Source: Vicingaceae bacterium
GTDB taxonomy: Bacteria > Bacteroidota > Bacteroidia > Flavobacteriales_E > Vicingaceae
Length of the DNA: 64,000 bases
Reading direction: 5' to 3'
Assembly (NCBI GenBank): GCA_019429185.1
Contig: JAHYJH010000005.1
Coordinates: forward strand, 2,928-66,927
Within the stretch, counting starts at the first letter, position 1; each line of letters starts with the position of its first letter. Below the pieces are notes generated by a model that searched no databases, was not told the origin of the DNA, and worked only from the letters and a program-made list of their open reading frames with translations. Of this stretch, positions 31,039 through 43,165 are shown in pieces. Made by a program: the position numbers and the translations under genes.

Positions 31039-31692
31039 ATGGAACATATAAATGTATTTATTGTTGATGACCATGCTCTAATCAGGGAAGGTTATAAATT
31101 GATTTTAAAAAAATATAAAAGTGAAATTAACCTTGTAGGTGAAGCATCTAATGGTATAGAAGCGTTAGAATTTCTTGAAACCAACAACAATGTTGATGTT
31201 GTTTTATTAGACATTACTATGCCAGATATGGATGGCTTTGAACTATCAAAAATAATAATTGAGAAATACCCGTTAATTAAAATTTTAGTTCTAACCATGC
31301 ACAATGACGAACCTTATATTTTTAAAATGATTTCTTTAGGTATTCATGGCTATATTTTGAAAGACACCACACATACCGAACTTTTTATAGCAATAAAAAC
31401 AATTCATGAAGGAAAAAAATTCTATAGTAATGAGGTTTCTAGCATGATGCTTAATAGGTTGTTGCGTAAAAACGAAACTACAAAAAAAGAGGAAATATTA
31501 GAACTCACTTCAAAAGAGGTTGAAATTTTAACTTTAGTTGTTCAAGGGCTAACAAGTACTGAAATAGCTGAAAAATTACAAACAAGTAATAGAACGATTG
31601 AAGCCCACCGAAGAAGTGTTATGAAAAAAATTGATGTTAGGAATACTGCAGAGCTTGTGAGTTATGCCCTAAAAAATAATTTAGTAGCTTAA
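31039..31692 (+). CDS. NarL/FixJ-family response regulator (REC + LuxR-type HTH)
   Basis: IVDDH...LLDITMPDMDG receiver motifs. C-terminal LTSKEVEILTLVVQGLTSTEIAEKLQTSNRTIEAHRRSVMKKI. Confidence 0.9.
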   Translation: MEHINVFIVDDHALIREGYKLILKKYKSEINLVGEASNGIEALEFLETNNNVDVVLLDITMPDMDGFELSKIIIEKYPLIKILVLTMHNDEPYIFKMISLGIHGYILKDTTHTELFIAIKTIHEGKKFYSNEVSSMMLNRLLRKNETTKKEEILELTSKEVEILTLVVQGLTSTEIAEKLQTSNRTIEAHRRSVMKKIDVRNTAELVSYALKNNLVA

Positions 31693-31998: not shown

Positions 31999-33399
31999 CT
32001 AATTTAACTCTTTCTCTTCATCTAGTTTAAAAGGAAAAACAATATCAAAATTGGTATGTTTTCTTGGAATGCTTTCCATTGTTAGTTTCCCATCAAAAGA
32101 TTCTACCCGAGTTCTGATATTATTTAATCCATGTCCTTTTTGAAGATAAAGTGAATTTACTTCAAAACCAACACGATTATCTTTGAGTTTAAGTGTAACG
32201 GTTTCTTCATTATAAATTAAGTCAATGTTAATTTCTGACAAATTTCCTCCATGTTTAATGGAGTTAGCAACAAACTCTTGAATAATTCTAAAAATAGCTA
32301 TTTCTAACGATTTTGTAAGTGCTGGAAAATGATTTGAATACCTAAATTTAACGTCTAATGTGGCAGTTCTTGTTTTTTTAGTTAAATCATCAATAGCTTT
32401 TATCAACCCATTATCAAATAAAACTAATGGGAGCGTGTTATAGCATATCTTTCTCAAATCCTTAATCGTACCTGAAAGTATAGACGAAATTTTTGCTAAA
32501 TCAGAATCATCTTTTGTTGTTGATTCGGTAAACACATCTAAATGCATTCGAAGGGCAGCTAATTGCTGACCTAATCCATCATGTAAATCCCTAGAAATTC
32601 GCTCTCGTTCTTTTTCTTGAGCTTCTATGGTTGTTTTCAACAGAAGTTGATTGAGTTTGTTTCGTTCTGTGAAATCTTTAATAATCGCCTGAAAACTGAT
32701 AATCTTTCCATAATTATCTCGAATAGCATTAATAGTTATTAAACAATCTTTAGTTGTATTATTTTTACCTAAAACTTGACATTGAAAATCTTTAATAGAG
32801 TCATTACTTTCTAATTTTTGAATGATGTAATTTGTGCTTGACTTATATTTCAAAAGCGAATTAAAACTTCTGTGGTGTAAATTATTTTCTTTATTTGTTT
32901 TTACAAAATCTAGCGTTGCCTTGTTGTAATCAATAATTCTTCCTTTTAAATCAAATGTTAGAATTGGGTCTGATGATTCTGTAAAAATTCGTTGATATTT
33001 CAAATTCAACTTATTGTTTTGTTCTTTTAACAAATAAAGTTGATAGGCATTTTCTATGGTTAATTTCAGATCAAAATCATGCCATGGTTTAGTGATGTAT
33101 CTATAAACCTGACCTTTATTGATAGCATCAATTACTGAATTAATATCGGAATAAGCGGTAACTAAAATTCGAATTGGATTGGGATGAGTTTCTAGTATAG
33201 ACTCAAAGAAATCAACACCACTTGCCTCTGGCATACGTTGGTCTGACAAAATAACTTCAATTTCATGTTGATTTAAAATTTGCTTTGCTTCGGCTGCTGT
33301 TCTGGCTATATAAATATTAAATATTCTTCGAAAAGAAGCCTGAAAAGCTTTTAAATTCAGTATTTGATCATCTATATAGAGTACATTTATTTTTTCCAT
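31999..33399 (-). CDS. Hybrid REC-PAS-histidine kinase (HisKA_3 / NarX-DegS type)
   Basis: N-terminal receiver (ILSDQRMP, LVTAY, ITKPW), a central PAS-like region, H-box RISRDLHDGLGQQL, and a C-terminal ATPase (HGLNNIRTRVESFDGKL). Confidence 0.85.
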   Translation of the reverse strand: MEKINVLYIDDQILNLKAFQASFRRIFNIYIARTAAEAKQILNQHEIEVILSDQRMPEASGVDFFESILETHPNPIRILVTAYSDINSVIDAINKGQVYRYITKPWHDFDLKLTIENAYQLYLLKEQNNKLNLKYQRIFTESSDPILTFDLKGRIIDYNKATLDFVKTNKENNLHHRSFNSLLKYKSSTNYIIQKLESNDSIKDFQCQVLGKNNTTKDCLITINAIRDNYGKIISFQAIIKDFTERNKLNQLLLKTTIEAQEKERERISRDLHDGLGQQLAALRMHLDVFTESTTKDDSDLAKISSILSGTIKDLRKICYNTLPLVLFDNGLIKAIDDLTKKTRTATLDVKFRYSNHFPALTKSLEIAIFRIIQEFVANSIKHGGNLSEINIDLIYNEETVTLKLKDNRVGFEVNSLYLQKGHGLNNIRTRVESFDGKLTMESIPRKHTNFDIVFPFKLDEEKELN

Positions 33400-33427
33400 A
33401 ATAAAGAGGTTTTACAATTTGTTATTA

Positions 33428-33479
33428 GCCCCCTAAATCCCCCGAAGGGGGACTTTGCTATCGCACAGAGCCTATTTAG
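33428..33479 (-). repeat. GC-rich hairpin repeat, 5'-leader copy (interrupted by a MITE at its distal end)
   Basis: gccccctaaatcccccgaagggggactttgctatcgcacagagcctatttag is collinear with 39271-39321. Confidence 0.85.
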
Positions 33480-33620
33480 AGTCTGTCTGTAAAGTCCAAC
33501 TTCTTCGTTATTCTCGTTTTAAAAACCAGTCATTTACAAAAGTAAACTCCTGATTTTCAAAACTTCGAAAGCCTCGAATTTGAACTTTACAGTTCAGCCT
33601 CTCGACTTTATGGACAGACT
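33480..33620. mobile_element. 141-bp MITE with 17-19 bp terminal inverted repeats and an 8-bp flanking duplication
   Basis: Left TIR agtctgtctgtaaagtc, right TIR gactttatggacagact. Flanked by ctatttag (33472-33479) and ctatttag (33621-33628). The paralogous empty site at 39312-39325 has a single ctatttag. Confidence 0.7.
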
Positions 33621-33635
33621 CTATTTAGTTAATGG

Positions 33636-33690
33636 TTATTTGTTTTTTGTTTTTTGTTATTTGTTTTTTGTTATTTGTTTTTTGTTATTA
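33636..33690. repeat. (TTDTTTG) heptamer tract, about 7.8 copies
   Basis: ttatttg ttttttg ttttttg ttatttg ttttttg ttatttg ttttttg. It overlaps the last 11 codons of the 7TMR-DISM kinase gene. Confidence 0.9.
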
Positions 33691-35786
33691 ATAGGTAAAC
33701 TTATTTTAAATTCCGTTCCTATGCCAAGTTCACTAGATATTTCAATAGTTGCATTATGTTTTTTAATTATTCCAAAAACTATCGAAAGCCCTAGTCCTGT
33801 TCCCTCTCCTACATCTTTGGTTGTAAAAAATGGGTCATACATTTTTTGTTTAGTTTGTTCATTCATACCAACGCCATTGTCTTTTATAGTTAGTACAACT
33901 TCATTTTCTTTGGCAACTGTTTTAACTTCAATTTCTCCTTCTGTTAATGGGATTCCTTTTTTCTTGATAGCAAAAATGGCATTATCAACAATGTTTAAAA
34001 CCAGTTGGTTAATTTTTCCAGGGTAACATTCTATTTGAGGTAAATTTTCTAATTTTTTAGTCAATTTGATGTCTCCTATTTTACTTTTTAGTAAAAGTAA
34101 GGTTGAATTAATTCCTTCATTTACATCAGCCAATTTCAAGTCGCTTTCATCTAAGCGTGAAAAATTACGTAAACCACTCACAATTTCAGCAGTACGTTTT
34201 GCTCCATCTTCAATTCCATGAATAATTCCATCCAATTCTTTTAACAGGTAATCGTATTGAAGTTCTTCTTTTAATTGTTCTATTTCCTCCAATTTTTCGG
34301 TTAGATTAGAACTGGTATTTATTTCTGCATATTTATTTAAGATTGCTTTAATATCCTTAATATCTTCGCGTAATGGATAAATATTTGAAGTAATAAAATT
34401 AATAGGATTGTTCACTTCATGAGCTATTCCTGCGGTTAGCTGACCCAATGAAGCCATTTTTTCGGCTTCCACCAATTGCGTTTGGGTTTGTTTAAGATTA
34501 TGCAATGTTTCATTAAGTGACTTAGTACGTTCAACTACTTGTTGTTCTAACATAATGTTTTGTTCTCTAACCAAACGCTCCTTTTCTTCTATTGCTTCTA
34601 ATCGTTCTTTTTTATAGATGTTGATTCTGGCTGCTAATGCAAAGGAAAGGAGTACGGTTTCTGTTGCTGCACCTATTTGCATAAAGTTATTTGTTAAATT
34701 GTTATAAGGAAGAACTCCTATGTCTTTTAATACCCATAAAAATATACCTATCAAAAATACTGACCATGCAATTAAAAAATATTTTGCGGGAGGATAACCT
34801 TTTTTACTTATCAAAAATGCAAATACTAACATTAGGAGAGCAACAACCATTGCATTAATTTCCATTATTATATAACTTACTTTATATACACCAATTATAG
34901 AAAGGGTGATAACTATTAGATAAATAACTATTATTGGTTTAAATATCTTTCTTGCTAAGGGTAAAAACTCTTTTGTTTTCAAAAAATTATTAAAAAAAAT
35001 TATCCCTGAAATTCCAACTAAAGAAGGTAATAAAAACATTGAATGTATTGCTAACCATGAAGAATTTGGCCAAAAATACTGAAAGGTAAATCCTTTAGGA
35101 CAAAGCTGAGTGAGCATCAAAATAAATATATATATCACATAATAAATATAACTCGTATCCTTTGTTGAAACAAATACAAAGAAATTATAAAAAATCATCA
35201 CCATCATGACTCCAAAAAAAATTGAAGAATAAAATGTAAAATCAATTGAACGTTCAGATATGGATAATAAACTACCAACAAAAATTGGTACTTGAATTTG
35301 TTCCGTACTTTTAATTTTTAAGAAATAAGTTTTTGTTTCTTTTGGTTCTATATTTAAGTCAAATATATAGTTGGTAAACAAATATTTTCTATTATAAAAA
35401 GGCACCGATTCCCCTATCTTAACAACACTATTAATTTTATAATCGTAAAACTCTACTTCATCCATTATTGGATGTGCAAGTTCTAACAATAGTTTTTTTT
35501 CGCTCTCGTTTTTAATTATTATTTTCAGCCAAAAAGCAGAATTAGTTATACCAAAATTTGGAACATCTTTTTGTGATAACTTAAAATCATTAGATTGAAT
35601 GACTTCTTCAATCTCTAAATTATTAGTTTTATCTTCTAGATAATGAATTTTTTTTCCAATTAATTTATTATAACTTAACCCATCTACCTCAAGTATTACA
35701 TTATTTGAAGAATAAATTATTGTTGGGTAAATTCCTAAAAAAATTACCATCAACAAATAACAATATTTAGTGTGCTTGAATAACAT
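33657..35786 (-). CDS. 7TMR-DISM sensor histidine kinase
   Basis: Signal peptide, an extracellular DISMED2-like domain, seven TM helices, a coiled coil, H-box AGIAHEVNNPINF, and the ATPase G-box GTGLGLSIV. Confidence 0.85.
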   Translation of the reverse strand: MLFKHTKYCYLLMVIFLGIYPTIIYSSNNVILEVDGLSYNKLIGKKIHYLEDKTNNLEIEEVIQSNDFKLSQKDVPNFGITNSAFWLKIIIKNESEKKLLLELAHPIMDEVEFYDYKINSVVKIGESVPFYNRKYLFTNYIFDLNIEPKETKTYFLKIKSTEQIQVPIFVGSLLSISERSIDFTFYSSIFFGVMMVMIFYNFFVFVSTKDTSYIYYVIYIFILMLTQLCPKGFTFQYFWPNSSWLAIHSMFLLPSLVGISGIIFFNNFLKTKEFLPLARKIFKPIIVIYLIVITLSIIGVYKVSYIIMEINAMVVALLMLVFAFLISKKGYPPAKYFLIAWSVFLIGIFLWVLKDIGVLPYNNLTNNFMQIGAATETVLLSFALAARINIYKKERLEAIEEKERLVREQNIMLEQQVVERTKSLNETLHNLKQTQTQLVEAEKMASLGQLTAGIAHEVNNPINFITSNIYPLREDIKDIKAILNKYAEINTSSNLTEKLEEIEQLKEELQYDYLLKELDGIIHGIEDGAKRTAEIVSGLRNFSRLDESDLKLADVNEGINSTLLLLKSKIGDIKLTKKLENLPQIECYPGKINQLVLNIVDNAIFAIKKKGIPLTEGEIEVKTVAKENEVVLTIKDNGVGMNEQTKQKMYDPFFTTKDVGEGTGLGLSIVFGIIKKHNATIEISSELGIGTEFKISLPINNKKQITKNK

Positions 35787-36489
35787 TATTATTTTTTGTA
35801 ATATTTAATTCTAAATTATAATTAACTGTAAATAATCCTTTTTTACCTATTTCTTCTCTTTGTTGAATAAGATTATTTCTAAGACCTAACATTCTTTCTT
35901 TGTCATAAGGTTGAGCTGTTTCTAGTGTATAAGCATTCATAATTCCTAATACTCTTGTAATATATTCATCGGTAGGATATGGAAACTCCCCATTATTGCC
36001 TAAAGATTTATCTATAACAAACCCAACATTAGTAAACATTTTTAAAGAATACTCCGCACAAATACCCATTAAAGTTTTAAATTCTAGTTGATTAACAATC
36101 GAAATTGCCGTTCGAGTCAGAATAAAACTAATACCCACTCCTGCAATTTCTTTTGAGTTCCATAATCCACATAATTCCCCAACACCCTCATCAAAATATT
36201 TCTTAACCATATCATGAATACCCTTATCCATAGAACTTATAGCATCCTCAACAGGTAATGGTATTTTTCCATCTGCTATTTGTAATCTTATACCTCCAAC
36301 CATTTTTATATTTTCCTCTAACTCAGCAACAACACAATAAACATTAGGGTTATATTGCCAACTAGGTTTACTTGATGTAACCATTGGAACGCCATAATCT
36401 TTCAATACCTTTGTATGACCCTCAATATATTCCTCACAAGAAATAGGATCTTCAATAGCTCTAAATACTCTTACTTTATACATAATCAA
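35767..36489 (-). CDS. Conserved-looking 240-aa protein, tentatively GNAT-fold acyltransferase-like
   Basis: Clean ORF that overlaps the kinase start by 20 nt. The segment GELCGLWNSKEIAGVGISFILTR resembles a GNAT motif A region. The assignment is weak. Confidence 0.6.
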   Translation of the reverse strand: MIMYKVRVFRAIEDPISCEEYIEGHTKVLKDYGVPMVTSSKPSWQYNPNVYCVVAELEENIKMVGGIRLQIADGKIPLPVEDAISSMDKGIHDMVKKYFDEGVGELCGLWNSKEIAGVGISFILTRTAISIVNQLEFKTLMGICAEYSLKMFTNVGFVIDKSLGNNGEFPYPTDEYITRVLGIMNAYTLETAQPYDKERMLGLRNNLIQQREEIGKKGLFTVNYNLELNITKNNNVIQAH

Positions 36490-36523
36490 GTTATTCCATT
36501 CTAAAATCTATAACATTTTACAT

Positions 36524-37642
36524 TTAATATATAATTTTCTCTAAATCAATAAAAAATCGACCTGAACTCATTGATTTATTTAATAATAATCTTCTACAAA
36601 CATTACATACAATTGCCCCCCCCATTACCACGCAAGAACCTAATTGAGGCCATGTAGTAATAGTTTTTGATATTTCCACCATTGATATTTTTAATTCATC
36701 AGACATAGTTTCTTTACCAATAATTGCTTCTACAATTGGTGCTTTTTCTTTATTTGTATGTAAATCATTAATCTTTTCAATATTGATGTCATTTATTAAT
36801 CCATGAAAAATAGCTCTATTATTTTCTTTATCAAATCTCTCTATGTCATTCATACCTCTATCACTCGTTGTCATCACCACAGGAATTCCAAGTTGCTTTG
36901 CTTTTTGCCGTGCTTCAATTTTGGTGGTTAACCCATCGCAAACTTCTATGCAAATGTCTAATTTCCCATCTTTGGTAAAAAAATCAGTTATGTTTTCATC
37001 TGTGAGTCCATCATGATAGCATGTAACTTTAAGGTAAGGGTCAATTTCGGCAATTTCTCGGGCTACAACTACGGTTTTTTTCACATTGAAATGATGAACG
37101 CCTGTTTGTATTCTATTCAAATTTGAAAGTTCAATCACATCAAAATCGGCTAAGACTAATTCTCCACAAATACGTTCTAAAGCAATTGTCATTGCAATGG
37201 CTTTTCCAACAGAAAGTCCAATAATTCCAATTTTTTTTGTGCTTAGTGTAATTTCTTCTTCGGGCGTAATTTTATATTGATTTCTATTCGTTCTAACTTC
37301 TACAAATTCGGCTTCATCTAACAAATGTACTAACGTATTTTTCCATGGATAATATACCCAAACCCCATATTCTTCTAAGGGTTGATTATTTAGATATGCT
37401 GAAATTTTACGTTCTAATTCATCGGAAGAAAATTTAATTTTTGGGTAACGTAATTTTATTAATTCCTGAAGTTGACTTTGAATTTCATCCAAAATGCAGA
37501 TTTGCGGTTGATTGTCAATTAATTCTTCTAATTTTTGCCTTTCAAGTGAATTTGATAATTTAAAAAAAATGGGTTTAACAACTGCATTAATTAAGTGATT
37601 ATCAGTTACTTTAAGTTTTTTAATTTGTTCTGTAAAATGCAT
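36524..37642 (-). CDS. ThiF/MoeB/E1-like adenylyltransferase-family protein with N-terminal extension
   Basis: IGIIGLSVGKAIAMTIA nucleotide-binding loop followed by ADFDVIELSNLNRIQ (the ThiF-family DxD..SNLNR motif). Confidence 0.8.
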   Translation of the reverse strand: MHFTEQIKKLKVTDNHLINAVVKPIFFKLSNSLERQKLEELIDNQPQICILDEIQSQLQELIKLRYPKIKFSSDELERKISAYLNNQPLEEYGVWVYYPWKNTLVHLLDEAEFVEVRTNRNQYKITPEEEITLSTKKIGIIGLSVGKAIAMTIALERICGELVLADFDVIELSNLNRIQTGVHHFNVKKTVVVAREIAEIDPYLKVTCYHDGLTDENITDFFTKDGKLDICIEVCDGLTTKIEARQKAKQLGIPVVMTTSDRGMNDIERFDKENNRAIFHGLINDINIEKINDLHTNKEKAPIVEAIIGKETMSDELKISMVEISKTITTWPQLGSCVVMGGAIVCNVCRRLLLNKSMSSGRFFIDLEKIIY

Positions 37643-37731
37643 AATTAAATCAATAAAAATTTATATAGTTTTAGCATTTAATATTACAAATTTAACTAAC
37701 ATCATTTTATAGGTAAAGTTTGTAAATTATA

Positions 37732-37747
37732 TAGGTAAAATTACCTA
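37732..37747. promoter_or_regulatory. 7-2-7 inverted repeat in the divergent promoter region
   Basis: TAGGTAA-AA-TTACCTA. A direct repeat of tataggtaaa sits at 37708-37717 and 37730-37739. Confidence 0.4.
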
Positions 37748-37795
37748 CGCTTTTAATCTAAATTAAATTTACTAATTTTATAAAAAAAAAATAAA

Positions 37796-38281
37796 ATGAA
37801 AACTTCTGATAAAATTCAAAATTCAAAAATAAACATACTCTATATTGATGATGAAGAAGAAAATCTAGCTTCATTCAAGGCTACTTTCAGACGATTTTTC
37901 ACAATTCACACAGCAAATTCAGCAAAAAAAGGTGAAAAAATTTTAGCTAAAAACGATATTGCAATTATCCTTACGGATCAACGTATGCCCGAAAAAACAG
38001 GTGTGGAATTTTTAGAATCAATTATTGAAAAATATCCCGATTCTATACGGATTTTGGTTACAGGTTATTCTGATATTGACGCTGTTGTTGATGCTGTTAA
38101 TAAAGGACAAATTTATAAATACATTCAAAAACCATGGGAAACTGAGTATATGAAAAATCTTTTAAATAAAGCCTATGAAGTATATTGTTTACGTAAAGAA
38201 AATAAAGAATTATTGTATCATATTAGAAACGTAAATGCACAATTGGAATTTATGCTGCGACAAAAACTAAGTTCGTTATAA
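37796..38281 (+). CDS. Stand-alone response-regulator receiver protein
   Basis: Paralogous to the REC domain of 31999..33399 (ILTDQRMPEKTG, LVTGYSD, IQKPW). No output domain. Confidence 0.85.
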   Translation: MKTSDKIQNSKINILYIDDEEENLASFKATFRRFFTIHTANSAKKGEKILAKNDIAIILTDQRMPEKTGVEFLESIIEKYPDSIRILVTGYSDIDAVVDAVNKGQIYKYIQKPWETEYMKNLLNKAYEVYCLRKENKELLYHIRNVNAQLEFMLRQKLSSL

Positions 38282-38351: not shown

Positions 38352-39257
38352 TTACTTAATGTGTCTTTCTTTTTTTTCGGGATAAATATCTTCTACAATC
38401 ACCAAAATCCCTGTTTCTTCCACACCTCCAAAATCAGGATTTAAAGCTGTTCCAAAAGATTTCATGGTGTCAGAAATTTTCATGTAGGTATTAATTAATG
38501 GAGGAACTGATTCTCCATAGGTTTTCAAGTATTGGTAAAGAGCTTTTAATCCATCATCAAAATTTTTATCTCTAATTAGTTTTTTAATTTCTTTCAAATC
38601 TGATTTTATTTCAATGGGGTGAATTGGAGTTACCAAATTCTCTAAATCGGGAAAATAAGAATTCATAAAATACAGCAGTGCATTTCTTGCTTGTTTGTTG
38701 TAGCTTGAATACATGGTTACTTTTCCAAAAAAATATTTCATGTGTGGATATCGAAGAATAATAGAGCCTAATCCATCCCAAAGGTTATCTAAGGCAAAAA
38801 TTCCTTTTCTAGCTCCATCACCACCAGCCTGATATTTAGGCTGCACCCATGAGCGACCTAATTCTATGGTGTAAGGCAAATATTCTTTAATAAATTTCTT
38901 CGAGAAATTAAAATAATGGTGCGTTGACAATTGAATTTCACCATCAGGTGAAATTGCTTTAGCACAATCAATAAAACGGTAACCACTTACAATTTCTTGC
39001 TCTTCTCTGTCATAAACAATGAGTTGTTCGTAGCAATTTTCCGAAACATCAAACTCATCTAAATCAACATCCTGTCCTGTTCCTCCTCCTGCCATTGAAA
39101 AAGATAGTTCTCGCAATCGACCTATTTCTTGGAGTACATTTGGAGCATTATGACAATTAATAATATAAATATCATTATCGCCCTTGTTCGTTTTTTTTAC
39201 AAAGCGTTCAGAGGCAAGTTCTTGCTCTATTAATTTTCTATCTACAGGTGCTAACAT
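38352..39257 (-). CDS. Hemolysin-like GNAT N-acyltransferase (OlsB/GlsB type, N-acyl amino acid lipid synthesis)
   Basis: LRELSFSMAGGGTGQDVDLDEFD segment and overall size fit the OlsB/GlsB family. It is adjacent to a PlsC-type acyltransferase gene. Confidence 0.7.
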   Translation of the reverse strand: MLAPVDRKLIEQELASERFVKKTNKGDNDIYIINCHNAPNVLQEIGRLRELSFSMAGGGTGQDVDLDEFDVSENCYEQLIVYDREEQEIVSGYRFIDCAKAISPDGEIQLSTHHYFNFSKKFIKEYLPYTIELGRSWVQPKYQAGGDGARKGIFALDNLWDGLGSIILRYPHMKYFFGKVTMYSSYNKQARNALLYFMNSYFPDLENLVTPIHPIEIKSDLKEIKKLIRDKNFDDGLKALYQYLKTYGESVPPLINTYMKISDTMKSFGTALNPDFGGVEETGILVIVEDIYPEKKERHIK

Positions 39258-39270
39258 AGTTTTTTGTTTT

Positions 39271-39321
39271 GCCCCCTAATCCCCCGAAGGGGGGCTTTGC
39301 CATCACTCAAAGCCTATTTAG
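39271..39321 (-). repeat. GC-rich hairpin repeat, 5'-leader copy (uninterrupted reference copy)
   Basis: gccccctaatcccccgaaggggggctttgccatcactcaaagcctatttag. Confidence 0.85.
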
Positions 39322-39327
39322 TTAAGG

Positions 39328-39382
39328 TTATTGTTATTTGTTATTTGTTTTTTTGTTTTTTGTTTTTTGTTTTTTGTTTTTT
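39328..39382. repeat. (TTDTTTG) heptamer tract
   Basis: ttattg ttatttg ttatttg tttttttg ttttttg ttttttg ttttttg. It ends at the stop codon of 39381..40196. Confidence 0.9.
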
Positions 39383-40196
39383 AATCCTTCAGTTCATATA
39401 CTTTATCTTTTACCCATTCTGCCCATTCTTTATCATTTTTTGTTTTATCAAAAGTTTGATATGGAATTGGTTTTCCATAAATAATTTTTATTGTTTTATT
39501 TTGTTGCTTGAATGTTTCTTTTGCCAAAAATAACATTTCTATGTTAACTTTAATTCCTAAAAACTTTCTCATGGCAGCTAATCTATAAAAAAAAGGTGAT
39601 AAATTCCCATCAACTCTTAAAGGAACAATATCTTTTTGGTGTTTTTTTGCTTGAGTAATAAAAGTTTTTTTCCACTCTAAATCCCTCACTTTTCCTTTTG
39701 ATTTTCGGCTTACCAATCCTGCTGGAAAAACAAAAACTGCTCTGTTTGATGAAAAAAGTTCATTTACACTATTTAATGAATCTTTTGAATTACTACCGTG
39801 TTTATTAACGCCAATAAACAATCCATTAAGGTTTTTTAAATGGAGTAAAATATCATTGACAACAAATTTCAAATCTCTTCTATAATCTTTTAATGAAGAT
39901 ACTATTGCCAACGCATCAATACCTCCAAGCGGATGATTTGATGCCAATATACATCCTCCTGATTTAGGTACGTTTTCTATTCCTATAGTTTTAATTTTAA
40001 TATGAAATCGTTCAATAATATCGTGTGCAAAATCGTAATCAAATTTATTTTTATTTTCAATTAAAATAGTGTTAATGTCAACTTGATGAATGGTTTTTTT
40101 TAAATAGTTAATAATAAATGCAGGCAACCATTTTAAGATTTTTGGGTTTTTACTTGCAATGATTTGCTCTACATCAATTAATTTTTGTTCTGACAT
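39381..40196 (-). CDS. Lysophospholipid (PlsC-family) acyltransferase, GlsA/OlsA-like
   Basis: NHPLGGIDA (HX4D) motif and FPAG block. Confidence 0.75.
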   Translation of the reverse strand: MSEQKLIDVEQIIASKNPKILKWLPAFIINYLKKTIHQVDINTILIENKNKFDYDFAHDIIERFHIKIKTIGIENVPKSGGCILASNHPLGGIDALAIVSSLKDYRRDLKFVVNDILLHLKNLNGLFIGVNKHGSNSKDSLNSVNELFSSNRAVFVFPAGLVSRKSKGKVRDLEWKKTFITQAKKHQKDIVPLRVDGNLSPFFYRLAAMRKFLGIKVNIEMLFLAKETFKQQNKTIKIIYGKPIPYQTFDKTKNDKEWAEWVKDKVYELKD

Positions 40197-42874: not shown

Positions 42875-42990
42875 AGTTCATAACTTTTGGAATAATCTCT
42901 ACATTCACAAATTGTTACACTTTCAAATTGATACATTCTCACATTTTTGTCACGCAGATAACGCAGATTTTCGCAGAAATAAACCCTTAT

Positions 42991-43165
42991 TCACTATTCA
43001 CCATTCACTATTCACCATTCACTATTCACCATTCACTATTCACCATTCACCATTCACTATTCACCATTCACTATTCACCATTCACCATTCACCATTCACC
43101 ATTCACCATTCACTATTCACCATTCACTATTCACTATTCACCATTCACCATTCACTATTCACATT
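42991..43165. repeat. Heptanucleotide microsatellite (TCACYAT) x24 plus one degenerate unit
   Basis: Counted unit by unit. There are 24 perfect 7-mers from 42991 to 43158, with only position 5 alternating C/T. Confidence 0.95.

Follow-up and report, generated by a model that had tools for sequence, protein, structure and literature searches.

Why should a ThiF/E1-like adenylating enzyme and a GNAT-like protein be encoded together with a 7TMR-DISM sensor kinase? The locus that raises this question lies in a 64-kb window of a Vicingaceae genome (the whole stretch of DNA analyzed, 64,000 nucleotides). An earlier note had read it as a candidate module for both making and sensing a signal, and the coordinates, strands, and gene order that it gave were confirmed, as were the 34-nt gap between the ThiF and GNAT-like genes and the 20-nt overlap of the latter with the kinase gene (Table 1). 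We find that the locus represents a cassette spread across the Bacteroidota. The operon shared by biosynthetic enzymes and a membrane sensor kinase, here and in hundreds of Bacteroidota, suggests that the cells make a chemical signal and encode the receptor for it.

Table 1. Features of the locus (positions in the 64-kb window)
Feature	Position	Strand	Basis and remarks
NarL/LuxR-type response regulator (REC+GerE)	31039..31692	+	Pfam, NCBIfam; convergent with kinase gene
REC-PAS-HisKA_3-HATPase hybrid kinase	31999..33399	-	Pfam
7TMR-DISM sensor histidine kinase	33657..35786	-	709 aa; DISMED2, 7-TM, HisKA, HATPase_c
N-acyl amino acid synthase (NAS), FeeM/TyzA/OxzA-like GNAT fold	35767..36489	-	240 aa, TTG start; AF2 and Foldseek
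ThiF-type ATP-dependent cyclase, Rv1355c/TrzS/OxzB clade, short form	36524..37642	-	372 aa; Pfam ThiF E 3e-17
Divergent promoter region, REC gene versus operon	37643..37795	.	Sequence
Orphan single-domain REC, C-terminal helix of ~40 aa	37796..38281	+	Pfam Response_reg E 6.5e-16

[quoted passage not shown]

The 372-aa protein corresponds to the cyclase (ThiF-type) half of proteins in the Rv1355c/TrzS/OxzB family. It scored 468.5 bits against the NCBIfam model NF005901 (Rv1355c family; cutoff, 476) over model positions 8 to 339 of 722, falling slightly below the cutoff because half of the model is unmatched, whereas all other ThiF families gave 68 bits or less. Its D167, R176, and D236 align to D59, R70, and D127 of ThiF, and D236, invariant in the family, was tested as the equivalent of TrzS D217; the alignment strongly supports that the adenylation residues are intact. 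The AF2 model (pLDDT, 78.5) has ThiF-like enzymes as its best fold matches, and the best PDB profile match is the ThiF-like tRNA t6A cyclodehydratase TcdA. Relatives are mostly longer, with ~765 aa and both ThiF and Nitroreductase domains in 65 of 77 genome loci, and the Bacteroidota long forms are 32 to 36% identical to actinobacterial Rv1355c-family proteins over 86 to 96% of their length. The window protein lacks this C-terminal flavin-dependent oxidase (nitroreductase) domain, ending at residue 372 just before the NAS gene. By tblastn, the oxidase domain had no match in the 64-kb window (best E, 0.19) or in the 10 kb flanking each side of the short-form loci, and the oxidase-less short form is a recurrent, stable variant.

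The 240-aa protein is a FeeM/TyzA-type NAS. The GNAT assignment of the earlier note holds at the level of the fold but found no support in sequence libraries (best Pfam E, 0.06). In Foldseek, the AF2 model (pLDDT, 89.2; pTM, 0.88) matched FeeM best (2g0b; E, 4e-8; target TM, 0.83), followed by the CoA-dependent AHL synthases MesI, RpaI, and BjaI; as no Pfam autoinducer-synthase model matches, the resemblance to AHL synthases is at the fold level only. FeeM and BjaI are also the closest structural relatives of TyzA (PMC10404671), so that TyzA and the window NAS share them among their nearest structures. A clearly unrelated fold or function of this protein had been named beforehand as grounds for dropping the idea, and the FeeM-like result leaves it standing. 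The family, which comprises 618 clusters at 50% identity, aligned by hhalign with the NAS-like neighbor of a Rhodococcus Rv1355c-family gene (87.5% probability; E, 3.6e-6). Its homologues start at MYK, two codons downstream of the TTG, which makes the ATG at 36483 the likelier start. The ThiF and NAS genes are neighbors in all loci and are fused in one natural protein (P0352, 50% identical to the ThiF protein and 33% to the NAS), which strongly supports functional coupling.

The combination of a NAS, a ThiF cyclase, and a nitroreductase-type oxidase constitutes the characterized N-acyl oxazolone pathway OxzAB/TyzACB/TrzAS (bioRxiv 10.1101/2020.06.11.147165, PMC10404671, PMC12856293). Since that pathway has both enzymes, the pair is not unprecedented and its substrate is a small N-acyl amino acid. 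The earlier view that no characterized system has this architecture thus fails for the enzyme pair and survives for the kinase coupling, which appears to be the only undescribed part: in the searchable literature, no paper describes the kinase linkage or Bacteroidota members of the pathway. TrzA acylates tryptophan, and the ThiF domain of TrzS cyclizes first, with ATP, the oxidase-dead R540A variant still giving the saturated ring (PMC12856293).

Two arrangements of this pathway can be compared with the window. TrzA/TrzS (Rv1356c/Rv1355c, Mycobacterium tuberculosis) and OxzA/OxzB (Pseudoalteromonas rubra) have the ThiF-oxidase fusion, as do most cassette relatives; in contrast, the window pair has no oxidase domain, shares its operon with a 7TMR-DISM kinase and with REC proteins, belongs to a phylum absent from those reported for the pathway, and has the reverse order to oxzAB/trzAS, with ThiF before NAS (the type II arrangement of metagenome loci puts NAS first). 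TyzA/TyzB/TyzC of M. tuberculosis and the NasY/ThiF/nitroreductase clusters of Stieleria, Thalassotalea, and Massilia resemble the window in their stand-alone ThiF cyclase and NAS, but they always have a separate nitroreductase-type oxidase next door. The window thus holds a NAS and an Rv1355c/OxzB-clade ThiF protein with adenylation residues, and no oxidase. An unsaturated oxazolone, such as the pathway's N-acyl 4-arylidene product derived from an aromatic amino acid, is not expected from it; if the genome has no oxidase gene elsewhere, the missing fused domain points to a saturated, more labile oxazolone. The product of the oxidase-less form may thus be a saturated azlactone or another compound.

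This enzyme pair also bears on the suggestion of the earlier note that a peptide or protein C terminus, as well as a small acid, might be the substrate. We do not retain the peptide or protein C terminus, and a small N-acyl amino acid pathway needs no precursor ORF. In that alternative, the E1-like enzyme would adenylate a C terminus and the GNAT protein would acylate, as in MccB/PaaA-type or ubiquitin-like systems, possibly on the signaling proteins themselves. MccB, PaaA, and UBA5 are indeed among the ThiF fold matches, and PADLOC E1-E2 models match weakly (33 bits or less, at the Rossmann level), but the far higher score of the small-molecule cyclase family argues against it, and no ubiquitin-like gene, E2, JAB, or precursor-peptide ORF occurs in the locus or is conserved in the flanks. 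The earlier note had seen no obvious precursor-peptide ORF, and there is indeed no credible small ORF in 37643-37795 or in 33400-33656; the 34-nt gap is too short to hold one. We regard protein or peptide modification as very improbable.

A cassette conserved across the Bacteroidota

The neighborhood comparison had been set beforehand as a refutation test, and it found the ThiF/NAS pair conserved with the kinase in both search directions. Starting from the NAS, a 7TMR-DISM kinase was present in 76 of 80 genome loci, the remaining 4 stopping at a contig edge, and it follows the NAS gene in all 76 loci whose contig reaches far enough. Starting from the kinase sensor domain, a NAS lay at most two genes upstream in 69 of 73 metagenome loci (the other 4 have none). 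The arrangement was found again in every related locus extending far enough. The full cassette consists of a divergent REC gene and, in the opposite direction, genes for ThiF(-oxidase), NAS, kinase, REC-kinase, and REC; a complete chromosome with an independent gene call has the same order. Spacing between cassette genes is operon-like (NAS-to-kinase gap, median of -4 nt and 60 nt or less in 71 of 73 gaps), in line with the earlier proposal of a single operon, which is likely. Altogether, there is strong support that ThiF and NAS are inherited together, and in a common orientation, with the 7TMR-DISM kinase and the REC proteins.

The cassette is self-contained, its genomic surroundings vary between loci, and no other flanking gene is conserved in more than 12 of them. 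Since it occurs in only ~400 of the Bacteroidota species genomes scanned (at least 400 species), including cultured Pedobacter strains such as Pedobacter steynii DSM 19110, it is accessory. The tailoring enzyme is interchangeable, being a cyclase with oxidase, a cyclase alone, a SAM methyltransferase (loci L095, L120, L151, and L160), or replaced by a second NAS (L071), and NAS plus kinase form the invariant core around this variable chemistry. Whether by a cyclase or by a methyltransferase, the carboxylate would be masked, as it is in diffusible signals. These loci extend the pathway to a fourth phylum, and their near-obligate operon linkage of biosynthetic enzymes to a dedicated kinase renders the speculation on oxazolone signaling experimentally testable.

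Sensor kinase and probable phosphorelay

The window kinase has the layout of a 7TMR-DISM receptor, with an N-terminal 7TMR-DISMED2 domain (PF07696; E, 4e-30; residues 44 to 170) followed by 7TMR-DISM_7TM (PF07695; E, 1e-49; residues 185 to 387), and its NCBIfam matches to LuxQ and similar kinases concern the generic kinase core only. RetS, LadS, and NicD of Pseudomonas likewise fuse a DISMED2 plus 7-TM sensor module to a signaling output, but they are not known to be encoded beside biosynthetic enzymes for a small molecule of their own; calcium, glutamate, and glycans are the cues reported for them. The 7-TM region is far more conserved than DISMED2, with 26 versus 4 invariant columns in the sensor alignment.

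Beside the operon, Pfam and NCBIfam domains agree with the REC-PAS-HisKA_3 kinase and the opposing NarL-type regulator of the earlier note. The hybrid kinase is the second tier of the relay; its position is conserved in 64 of 81 sources, most relatives having there a REC-HisKA-HATPase protein of ~360 aa. In the window, a 257-nt gap containing the hairpin TCCCCCGAAGGGGGA (33438-33452) separates its gene from the 7TMR-DISM kinase gene, and the two may therefore be transcribed separately. HisKA_3 kinases are established partners of NarL-type regulators, and we infer such a pairing here. The regulator adjoins the cassette in 11 sources, mainly those with the HisKA_3 kinase variant, and is probably the transcriptional output in the lineage of the window. 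The orphan REC is paralogous to the REC of the hybrid kinase, as the earlier note had claimed (53% identical residues over 129 positions; E, 4e-50). Its gene belongs to the conserved cassette and is found, transcribed divergently, in 65 of 81 sources, sometimes in duplicate. Its best NCBIfam match is the REC plus linker of NosR-type REC/c-di-GMP phosphodiesterases (155 bits).

A proposed model of self-made signal and receptor

We tentatively propose, as our leading reading although with somewhat less than even confidence, that the cassette links the enzymes for an N-acyl amino acid derivative with a dedicated sensor kinase reading this product and with a multireceiver phosphorelay. By homology with the characterized enzymes, the NAS would acylate an amino acid from acyl-CoA or acyl-ACP, and the ThiF domain would adenylate the carboxylate, on which the amide oxygen would close a 5(4H)-oxazolone ring. 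The gene architecture suggests that this neutral, lipophilic product could be the cue read by the kinase, probably via the highly conserved 7-TM domain, and that the kinase could relay it, by way of the paralogous REC domains, to the HisKA_3 kinase and to the NarL-type regulator. Synthase and receptor would then form an autoinducer-like pair. The lack of a conserved transporter in the cassette also speaks for this reading. That the kinase senses the product of the enzymes of the locus is, taken by itself, plausible but short of an even chance. An extension that we put forward with slightly less confidence still is cell-to-cell or self-signaling throughout the Bacteroidota, in which a NAS product with its carboxylate masked by an interchangeable enzyme (a cyclase, with or without an oxidase, or a methyltransferase) would be the cognate ligand of the cotranscribed kinase. 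If true, this would give oxazolone lipids a first physiological role, add a class of lipid ligands for the 7-TM domain of 7TMR-DISM receptors, and equip the Bacteroidota with a synthase and receptor of their own, comparable to LuxM/LuxN or CqsA/CqsS.

Synthase and sensor kinase pairs are familiar from quorum sensing (LuxM/LuxN, CqsA/CqsS, PhcB/PhcS, and RpfF/RpfC/RpfG). The cassette resembles them in the adjacency or cotranscription of a synthase gene with that of a polytopic membrane histidine kinase feeding a phosphorelay, and their signal, a small lipophilic acyl derivative, can be likened to the predicted cassette product. Moreover, the NAS shares its fold with AHL synthases, the variant with a methyltransferase recalls the methyl-ester signals of PhcB, and the cassette REC domains resemble those of RpfG/NosR-type regulators. 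In contrast, neither the synthases nor the sensor domains of these systems are homologous in sequence to those of the cassette, whose sensor is of the 7TMR-DISM type. For oxazolones themselves, a signaling role has been speculated on, with c-di-GMP genes beside trzAS (PMC12856293), and their physiological role has been called a major unresolved question (PMC12856293, bioRxiv 10.1101/2020.06.11.147165). A Rhodococcus plasmid copy of the oxazolone genes also adjoins a GGDEF gene.

Cotranscription fits equally well a kinase merely controlling production. Moreover, a saturated oxazolone may be too labile for a signal.

The two-component proteins could instead be cluster-situated regulators, an external cue such as a DISMED2-bound glycan or envelope stress switching on or off production of a derivative whose role would be that of an effector (antimicrobial, surfactant, or stress lipid) and not that of a signal read by this kinase. 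DISMED2 is generally regarded as carbohydrate binding and therefore points to an external glycan cue; it is present and conserved as a domain, although its conservation is far below that of the 7-TM region. Antibiotics induce proteobacterial oxazolone production (bioRxiv 10.1101/2020.06.11.147165), N-acyl tyrosine derivatives are antimicrobial (PMC12856293, PMC12479983), and the enzyme pair functions without the kinase in other phyla (the actinobacterial and proteobacterial oxzAB/trzAS pairs) and in L164, the locus of the fusion protein. In place of a DNA-binding regulator, the canonical cassette has REC-only and REC-kinase proteins, which cuts both ways: a simple autoinduction loop is not evident, and a cluster-situated transcriptional switch of this kind would be unusual. 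Furthermore, 95% of the sensor-domain relatives retain the NAS despite tailoring swaps, a tighter association than that of typical regulators. We consider this regulatory alternative possible but less likely than the leading reading.

In another alternative, the derivative would be a membrane constituent, the 7-TM kinase monitoring the state of the bilayer with feedback on envelope composition and not cell-to-cell signaling. C12 tyrazolones were found in cell pellets and not in supernatants (PMC10404671), more tryptazolone is present inside cells than outside (PMC12856293), and the cassette includes no conserved exporter. The glycine-lipid genes glsB and glsA directly adjoin the cassette in the window, but such proximity is limited to the window and locus L001. 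Oxazolones, with a half-life of hours at pH 8 (bioRxiv 10.1101/2020.06.11.147165), would be poor structural lipids, and the accessory distribution of the cassette also argues against lipid homeostasis, which we judge improbable.

Repeats in the divergent promoter region

Along with the palindrome GGTAAAATTACC, the promoter region between the orphan REC gene and the operon holds two exact copies of TATAGGTAAA (37708-37717 and 37730-37739), and the rest of the 64-kb window has just one more. This type of motif is not conserved beyond the window and L001, where repeats with a TACCT core occur in the equivalent promoter region; these repeats might conceivably have a regulatory role.

The acyltransferase and ThiF genes are inherited with a sensor kinase

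Used as the seed of a forward search, the putative N-acyl amino acid synthase (NAS) of the window was found in 400 of 185,579 species-representative genomes, and the 80 loci that were retrieved belong to Flavobacteriales, Pedobacter, Chitinophagaceae, Cytophagaceae and Sporocytophaga. The gene of a 7TMR-DISM histidine kinase (DISMED2 plus 7-TM sensor) follows NAS in 76 of these 80 loci, and the other 4 stop at a contig edge. The reverse search, seeded with the kinase sensor domain alone, gave 80 metagenome loci, 73 of them with upstream sequence, and NAS lies at most two genes upstream of the kinase in 69 of the 73. The association drawn in an earlier note from the sequence of the window alone, i.e., a ThiF-like and a GNAT-like gene in one operon with this kinase, is therefore conserved in both directions of seeding.

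Clustering of the flanking ORFs revealed a canonical cassette in which a REC gene is transcribed divergently from the series ThiF(-oxidase)>NAS>kinase>REC-HisKA-HATPase>REC. Its spacing is operon-like, with median distances of -4 nt from NAS to kinase (at most 60 nt in 71/73), 10 nt from kinase to REC-kinase (at most 60 nt in 49/54), and -8 nt from REC-kinase to REC (at most 60 nt in 39/39). No further neighbour is common to more than 12 loci, which argues for a self-contained cassette residing in variable contexts. As for the window itself, all six ORF positions reported earlier were confirmed, as were the 34-nt gap and the 20-nt overlap, the domain calls other than "GNAT" (by Pfam and NCBIfam), and the paralogy of the orphan REC with that of the hybrid kinase (53% identity over 129 residues). 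On a complete 3.4-Mb chromosome, genes called independently stand in the same order. Since NAS homologues begin at the third codon of the 240-aa ORF, the ATG at 36483 is the likelier NAS start.

Genes of the locus in the window
Gene	Position	Strand	Product
NarL-type regulator	31039-31692	+	217 aa
REC-PAS-HisKA_3 kinase	31999-33399	-	466 aa
7TMR-DISM kinase	33657-35786	-	709 aa
NAS	35767-36489	-	240 aa
ThiF-like protein	36524-37642	-	372 aa
Orphan REC	37796-38281	+	161 aa

The kinase-seeded loci include the ThiF(-oxidase)>NAS>kinase arrangement and 18 loci of a 269-aa NAS subfamily (alignment A3) with NAS>ThiF(-oxidase)>kinase, which is the oxzAB gene order. Four others (L095, L120, L151, and L160) carry NAS>SAM-methyltransferase>kinase and no ThiF, and in the genome locus L071 two tandem NAS genes precede the kinase, again with no ThiF. 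Given these variants, NAS and kinase make up the invariant pair, and the comparison of gene orders suggests that the carboxylate-masking step, hence the tailoring enzyme, is interchangeable.

The enzyme pair is of the kind that makes oxazolones in a known pathway

Searches of the 240-aa protein against Pfam and NCBIfam, and against PDB by phmmer and by profile, gave no significant match, and its assignment as a predicted FeeM-type acyltransferase comes from structure prediction only. FeeM is the top fold match of the AlphaFold2 model (pLDDT 89.2, pTM 0.88), and MesI, RpaI, and BjaI, acyl-homoserine-lactone synthases that depend on CoA, rank after it. The label "GNAT-like" thus holds at the level of the fold, with FeeM-type and acyl-homoserine-lactone synthases as matches, and finds no significant counterpart at the level of sequence. 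The same nearest structural relatives, FeeM and BjaI, have been described for TyzA (PMC10404671). The family is well conserved, with at least 200 clusters when its members are grouped at 90% identity; at 50% identity, a library of 1.84 billion proteins contains 618 representative clusters of it.

In the characterized pathway, TrzA acylates tryptophan in an acyl-CoA-dependent manner, the ThiF domain of TrzS cyclises the product to an oxazolone with ATP, and its oxidase then desaturates the ring, yielding N-acyl tryptazolones (PMC12856293); tyrazolones are the products of OxzAB and TyzACB (bioRxiv 10.1101/2020.06.11.147165, PMC10404671). At the sequence level, the NAS family aligned with the 259-aa neighbour of a Rhodococcus Rv1355c-family gene (hhalign probability 87.5%, E 3.6e-6), and in a natural fusion, P0352, the ThiF half has 50% identity with the window ThiF protein and the C-terminal half has 33% identity with the 240-aa protein. 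The pathway and this evidence together overturn, for the enzyme pair, the earlier remark that no characterised system of this architecture was known, NAS plus ThiF cyclase being that of TrzAS/OxzAB/TyzACB. They also bear on the peptide or protein C-termini formerly suggested as E1-like substrates: the known pathway acts on a small N-acyl amino acid and, by analogy, so does the window ThiF protein, making a precursor peptide unnecessary. The search for small ORFs in 37643-37795 and 33400-33656 gave no credible candidate, in agreement with the earlier failure to see one, and we regard modification of a protein or peptide by this locus as poorly supported and very improbable.

The Rhodococcus locus (L083:1863-5956, plasmid NZ_CP046101.1) consists of the Rv1355c-family gene and a divergent acyltransferase-like gene; the adjoining GGDEF-domain gene recalls the c-di-GMP genes beside trzAS of M. 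tuberculosis. P0352 (632 aa, without oxidase, L164:6001-7899) has no kinase alongside, its neighbours being an OmpA-family protein, a DUF7619 protein, and an aquaporin. A 616-aa Kitasatospora protein (L082:5230-8114, plasmid NZ_CP108248.1), also without oxidase, shares 40% identity with the window ThiF protein in its ThiF half and was rejected as a NAS-ThiF fusion, its weak GNAT-like N-terminus showing no detectable relation to the NAS family (hhalign probability 0.4%). Next comes a gene for a ketoacyl-ACP synthase III, a LuxR-type regulator is near, and this locus may represent a different acyl-amino-acid pathway. A Mycolicibacterium plasmid locus (H2) had no adjoining NAS and was of no use for comparison. 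Other members of the NAS family are fused to a TIR domain (P0343, matching defence-type TIR models in PADLOC), joined to leucine-rich repeats (P0330), or contain two stretches matching the NAS profile and a weak helix-turn-helix match (P0245, 479 aa). PADLOC assigned the window locus to no defence system.

Possible repeated loss of the oxidase

The window ThiF protein matched the NCBIfam model NF005901, "Rv1355c family protein," with 468.5 bits, over only positions 8-339 of 722, all other ThiF families scoring at most 68 bits. Its D167, R176, and D236 align with D59, R70, and D127 of E. coli ThiF, and D236 is invariant in 31 relatives; as judged from this alignment, the adenylation residues are intact. 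ThiF and Nitroreductase domains are joined in a product of ~765 aa in 65 of the 77 related genome loci, and the ThiF half stands alone (356 to 379 aa) in the window and 11 others. This short length is shared by over 100 clusters at 90% identity, which are 53 to 94% identical to the window ThiF protein, and the window NAS gene begins 34 nt past the ThiF stop codon; the short protein is therefore no artefact of truncation but a stable form. No stand-alone oxidase is present in the 64-kb window or in the 10-kb flanks of any short-form locus. Carriers of the oxidase-less cassette include CP012155.1 and OZ260100.1 besides the genome of the window. Short forms are spread over several clades of an unbootstrapped neighbour-joining tree, mixed among long forms, which suggests that the oxidase was lost repeatedly. 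A convergent change of NAS specificity in the oxidase-less lineages was rejected, the only candidates being two conservative positions that both follow phylogeny; the alignments lend no support to a substrate switch.

As a TrzS variant with a dead oxidase still yields the saturated cyclised intermediate (PMC12856293), the window product is likely a saturated 5(4H)-oxazolone, provided that the genome has no oxidase gene at another place. The top fold match of the window ThiF model is PDB 9egb (released 2025), "AclA from Tenacibaculum discolor in complex with substrate," a ThiF-like enzyme of another Bacteroidota organism; the searchable literature gave no account of its function.

A proposed model of signal synthesis and sensing

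The present study shows what the two enzymes are, that they are coupled to each other, and that they are inherited together with the kinase and REC proteins. We propose a model in which, as in its homologues, NAS would N-acylate an amino acid, ThiF would adenylate the N-acyl amino acid and close the ring, and the kinase, as its architecture suggests, would read the neutral lipophilic product; in the window, the signal would then pass through the paralogous RECs to the HisKA_3 kinase and the NarL-type regulator. Synthase/sensor-kinase pairs are known from quorum sensing (LuxM/LuxN, CqsA/CqsS, PhcB/PhcS, and RpfF/RpfC), and the pairing of NAS with a kinase resembles them, although sequence homology to them is confined to the generic kinase core, besides a common acyltransferase fold. 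The 7-TM region is by far the better conserved part of the kinase sensor, having 26 invariant alignment columns where DISMED2 has 4, and the cassette includes no conserved exporter.

This full signal-and-receptor model is possible, and we favour it tentatively. Against it, the enzyme pair can occur without the kinase, the canonical cassette lacks a DNA-binding output, and the lifetime of a saturated oxazolone may be very short. The main rival, in which the kinase responds to an external cue and does no more than control the production of an effector lipid, strikes us as rather unlikely, and a membrane-homeostasis loop as improbable.

The NAS and ThiF biosynthetic pair is already known, having been reported from Pseudomonadota, Actinomycetota, and Planctomycetota (PMC12479983). 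The oxazolone biosynthesis papers, in their main texts, and the ThiF review say nothing of histidine kinases or two-component systems; neither these sources, nor the PMC12856293 supplement, nor broader literature searches mention a kinase linkage or Bacteroidota members. Hence, the Bacteroidota cassette, its near-obligate coupling to the kinase, and the oxidase-less and methyltransferase variants appear undescribed. The interest of the finding is that the role of oxazolones is regarded as a major unresolved question in the very papers that defined their biosynthesis, and the kinase linkage makes it directly testable in cultured Pedobacter strains. Such carriers of the cassette are Pedobacter steynii DSM 19110 (L057), P. 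duraquae DSM 19034 (L066), and Pedobacter sp. V48 (L076).

Promoter, spacers, and flanks

The divergent REC/ThiF promoter contains TATAGGTAAA twice, 22 bp apart, and the palindrome GGTAAAATTACC (37708-37739). On the operon strand the core of the repeat is TACCTAT, which we take to resemble the E. coli NarL heptamer. Similar TACCT repeats occur in the same promoter of L001, the nearest relative of the window, and a conserved operator was rejected, the repeat not being conserved past L001. A sigma-70 promoter scan was of no value: matches were fewer than in shuffled sequence, and the promoters of Bacteroidota depart from that consensus. The 257 nt that separate the 7TMR-DISM and REC-PAS-HisKA_3 kinase genes contain a perfect GC-rich palindromic hairpin, TCCCCCGAAGGGGGA (33438-33452), which may be a terminator or attenuator dividing two transcripts. 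The glycine-lipid genes glsB (NF053696, 453 bits) and glsA (NF053697, 358 bits) adjoin the cassette (38352-40196, minus strand); they recur beside it only in L001, so their proximity probably reflects local synteny. An intergenic 7-bp tandem repeat, ATTCACC, of ~25 copies with 90% matches (42989-43162) gives rise to spurious repetitive ORFs.
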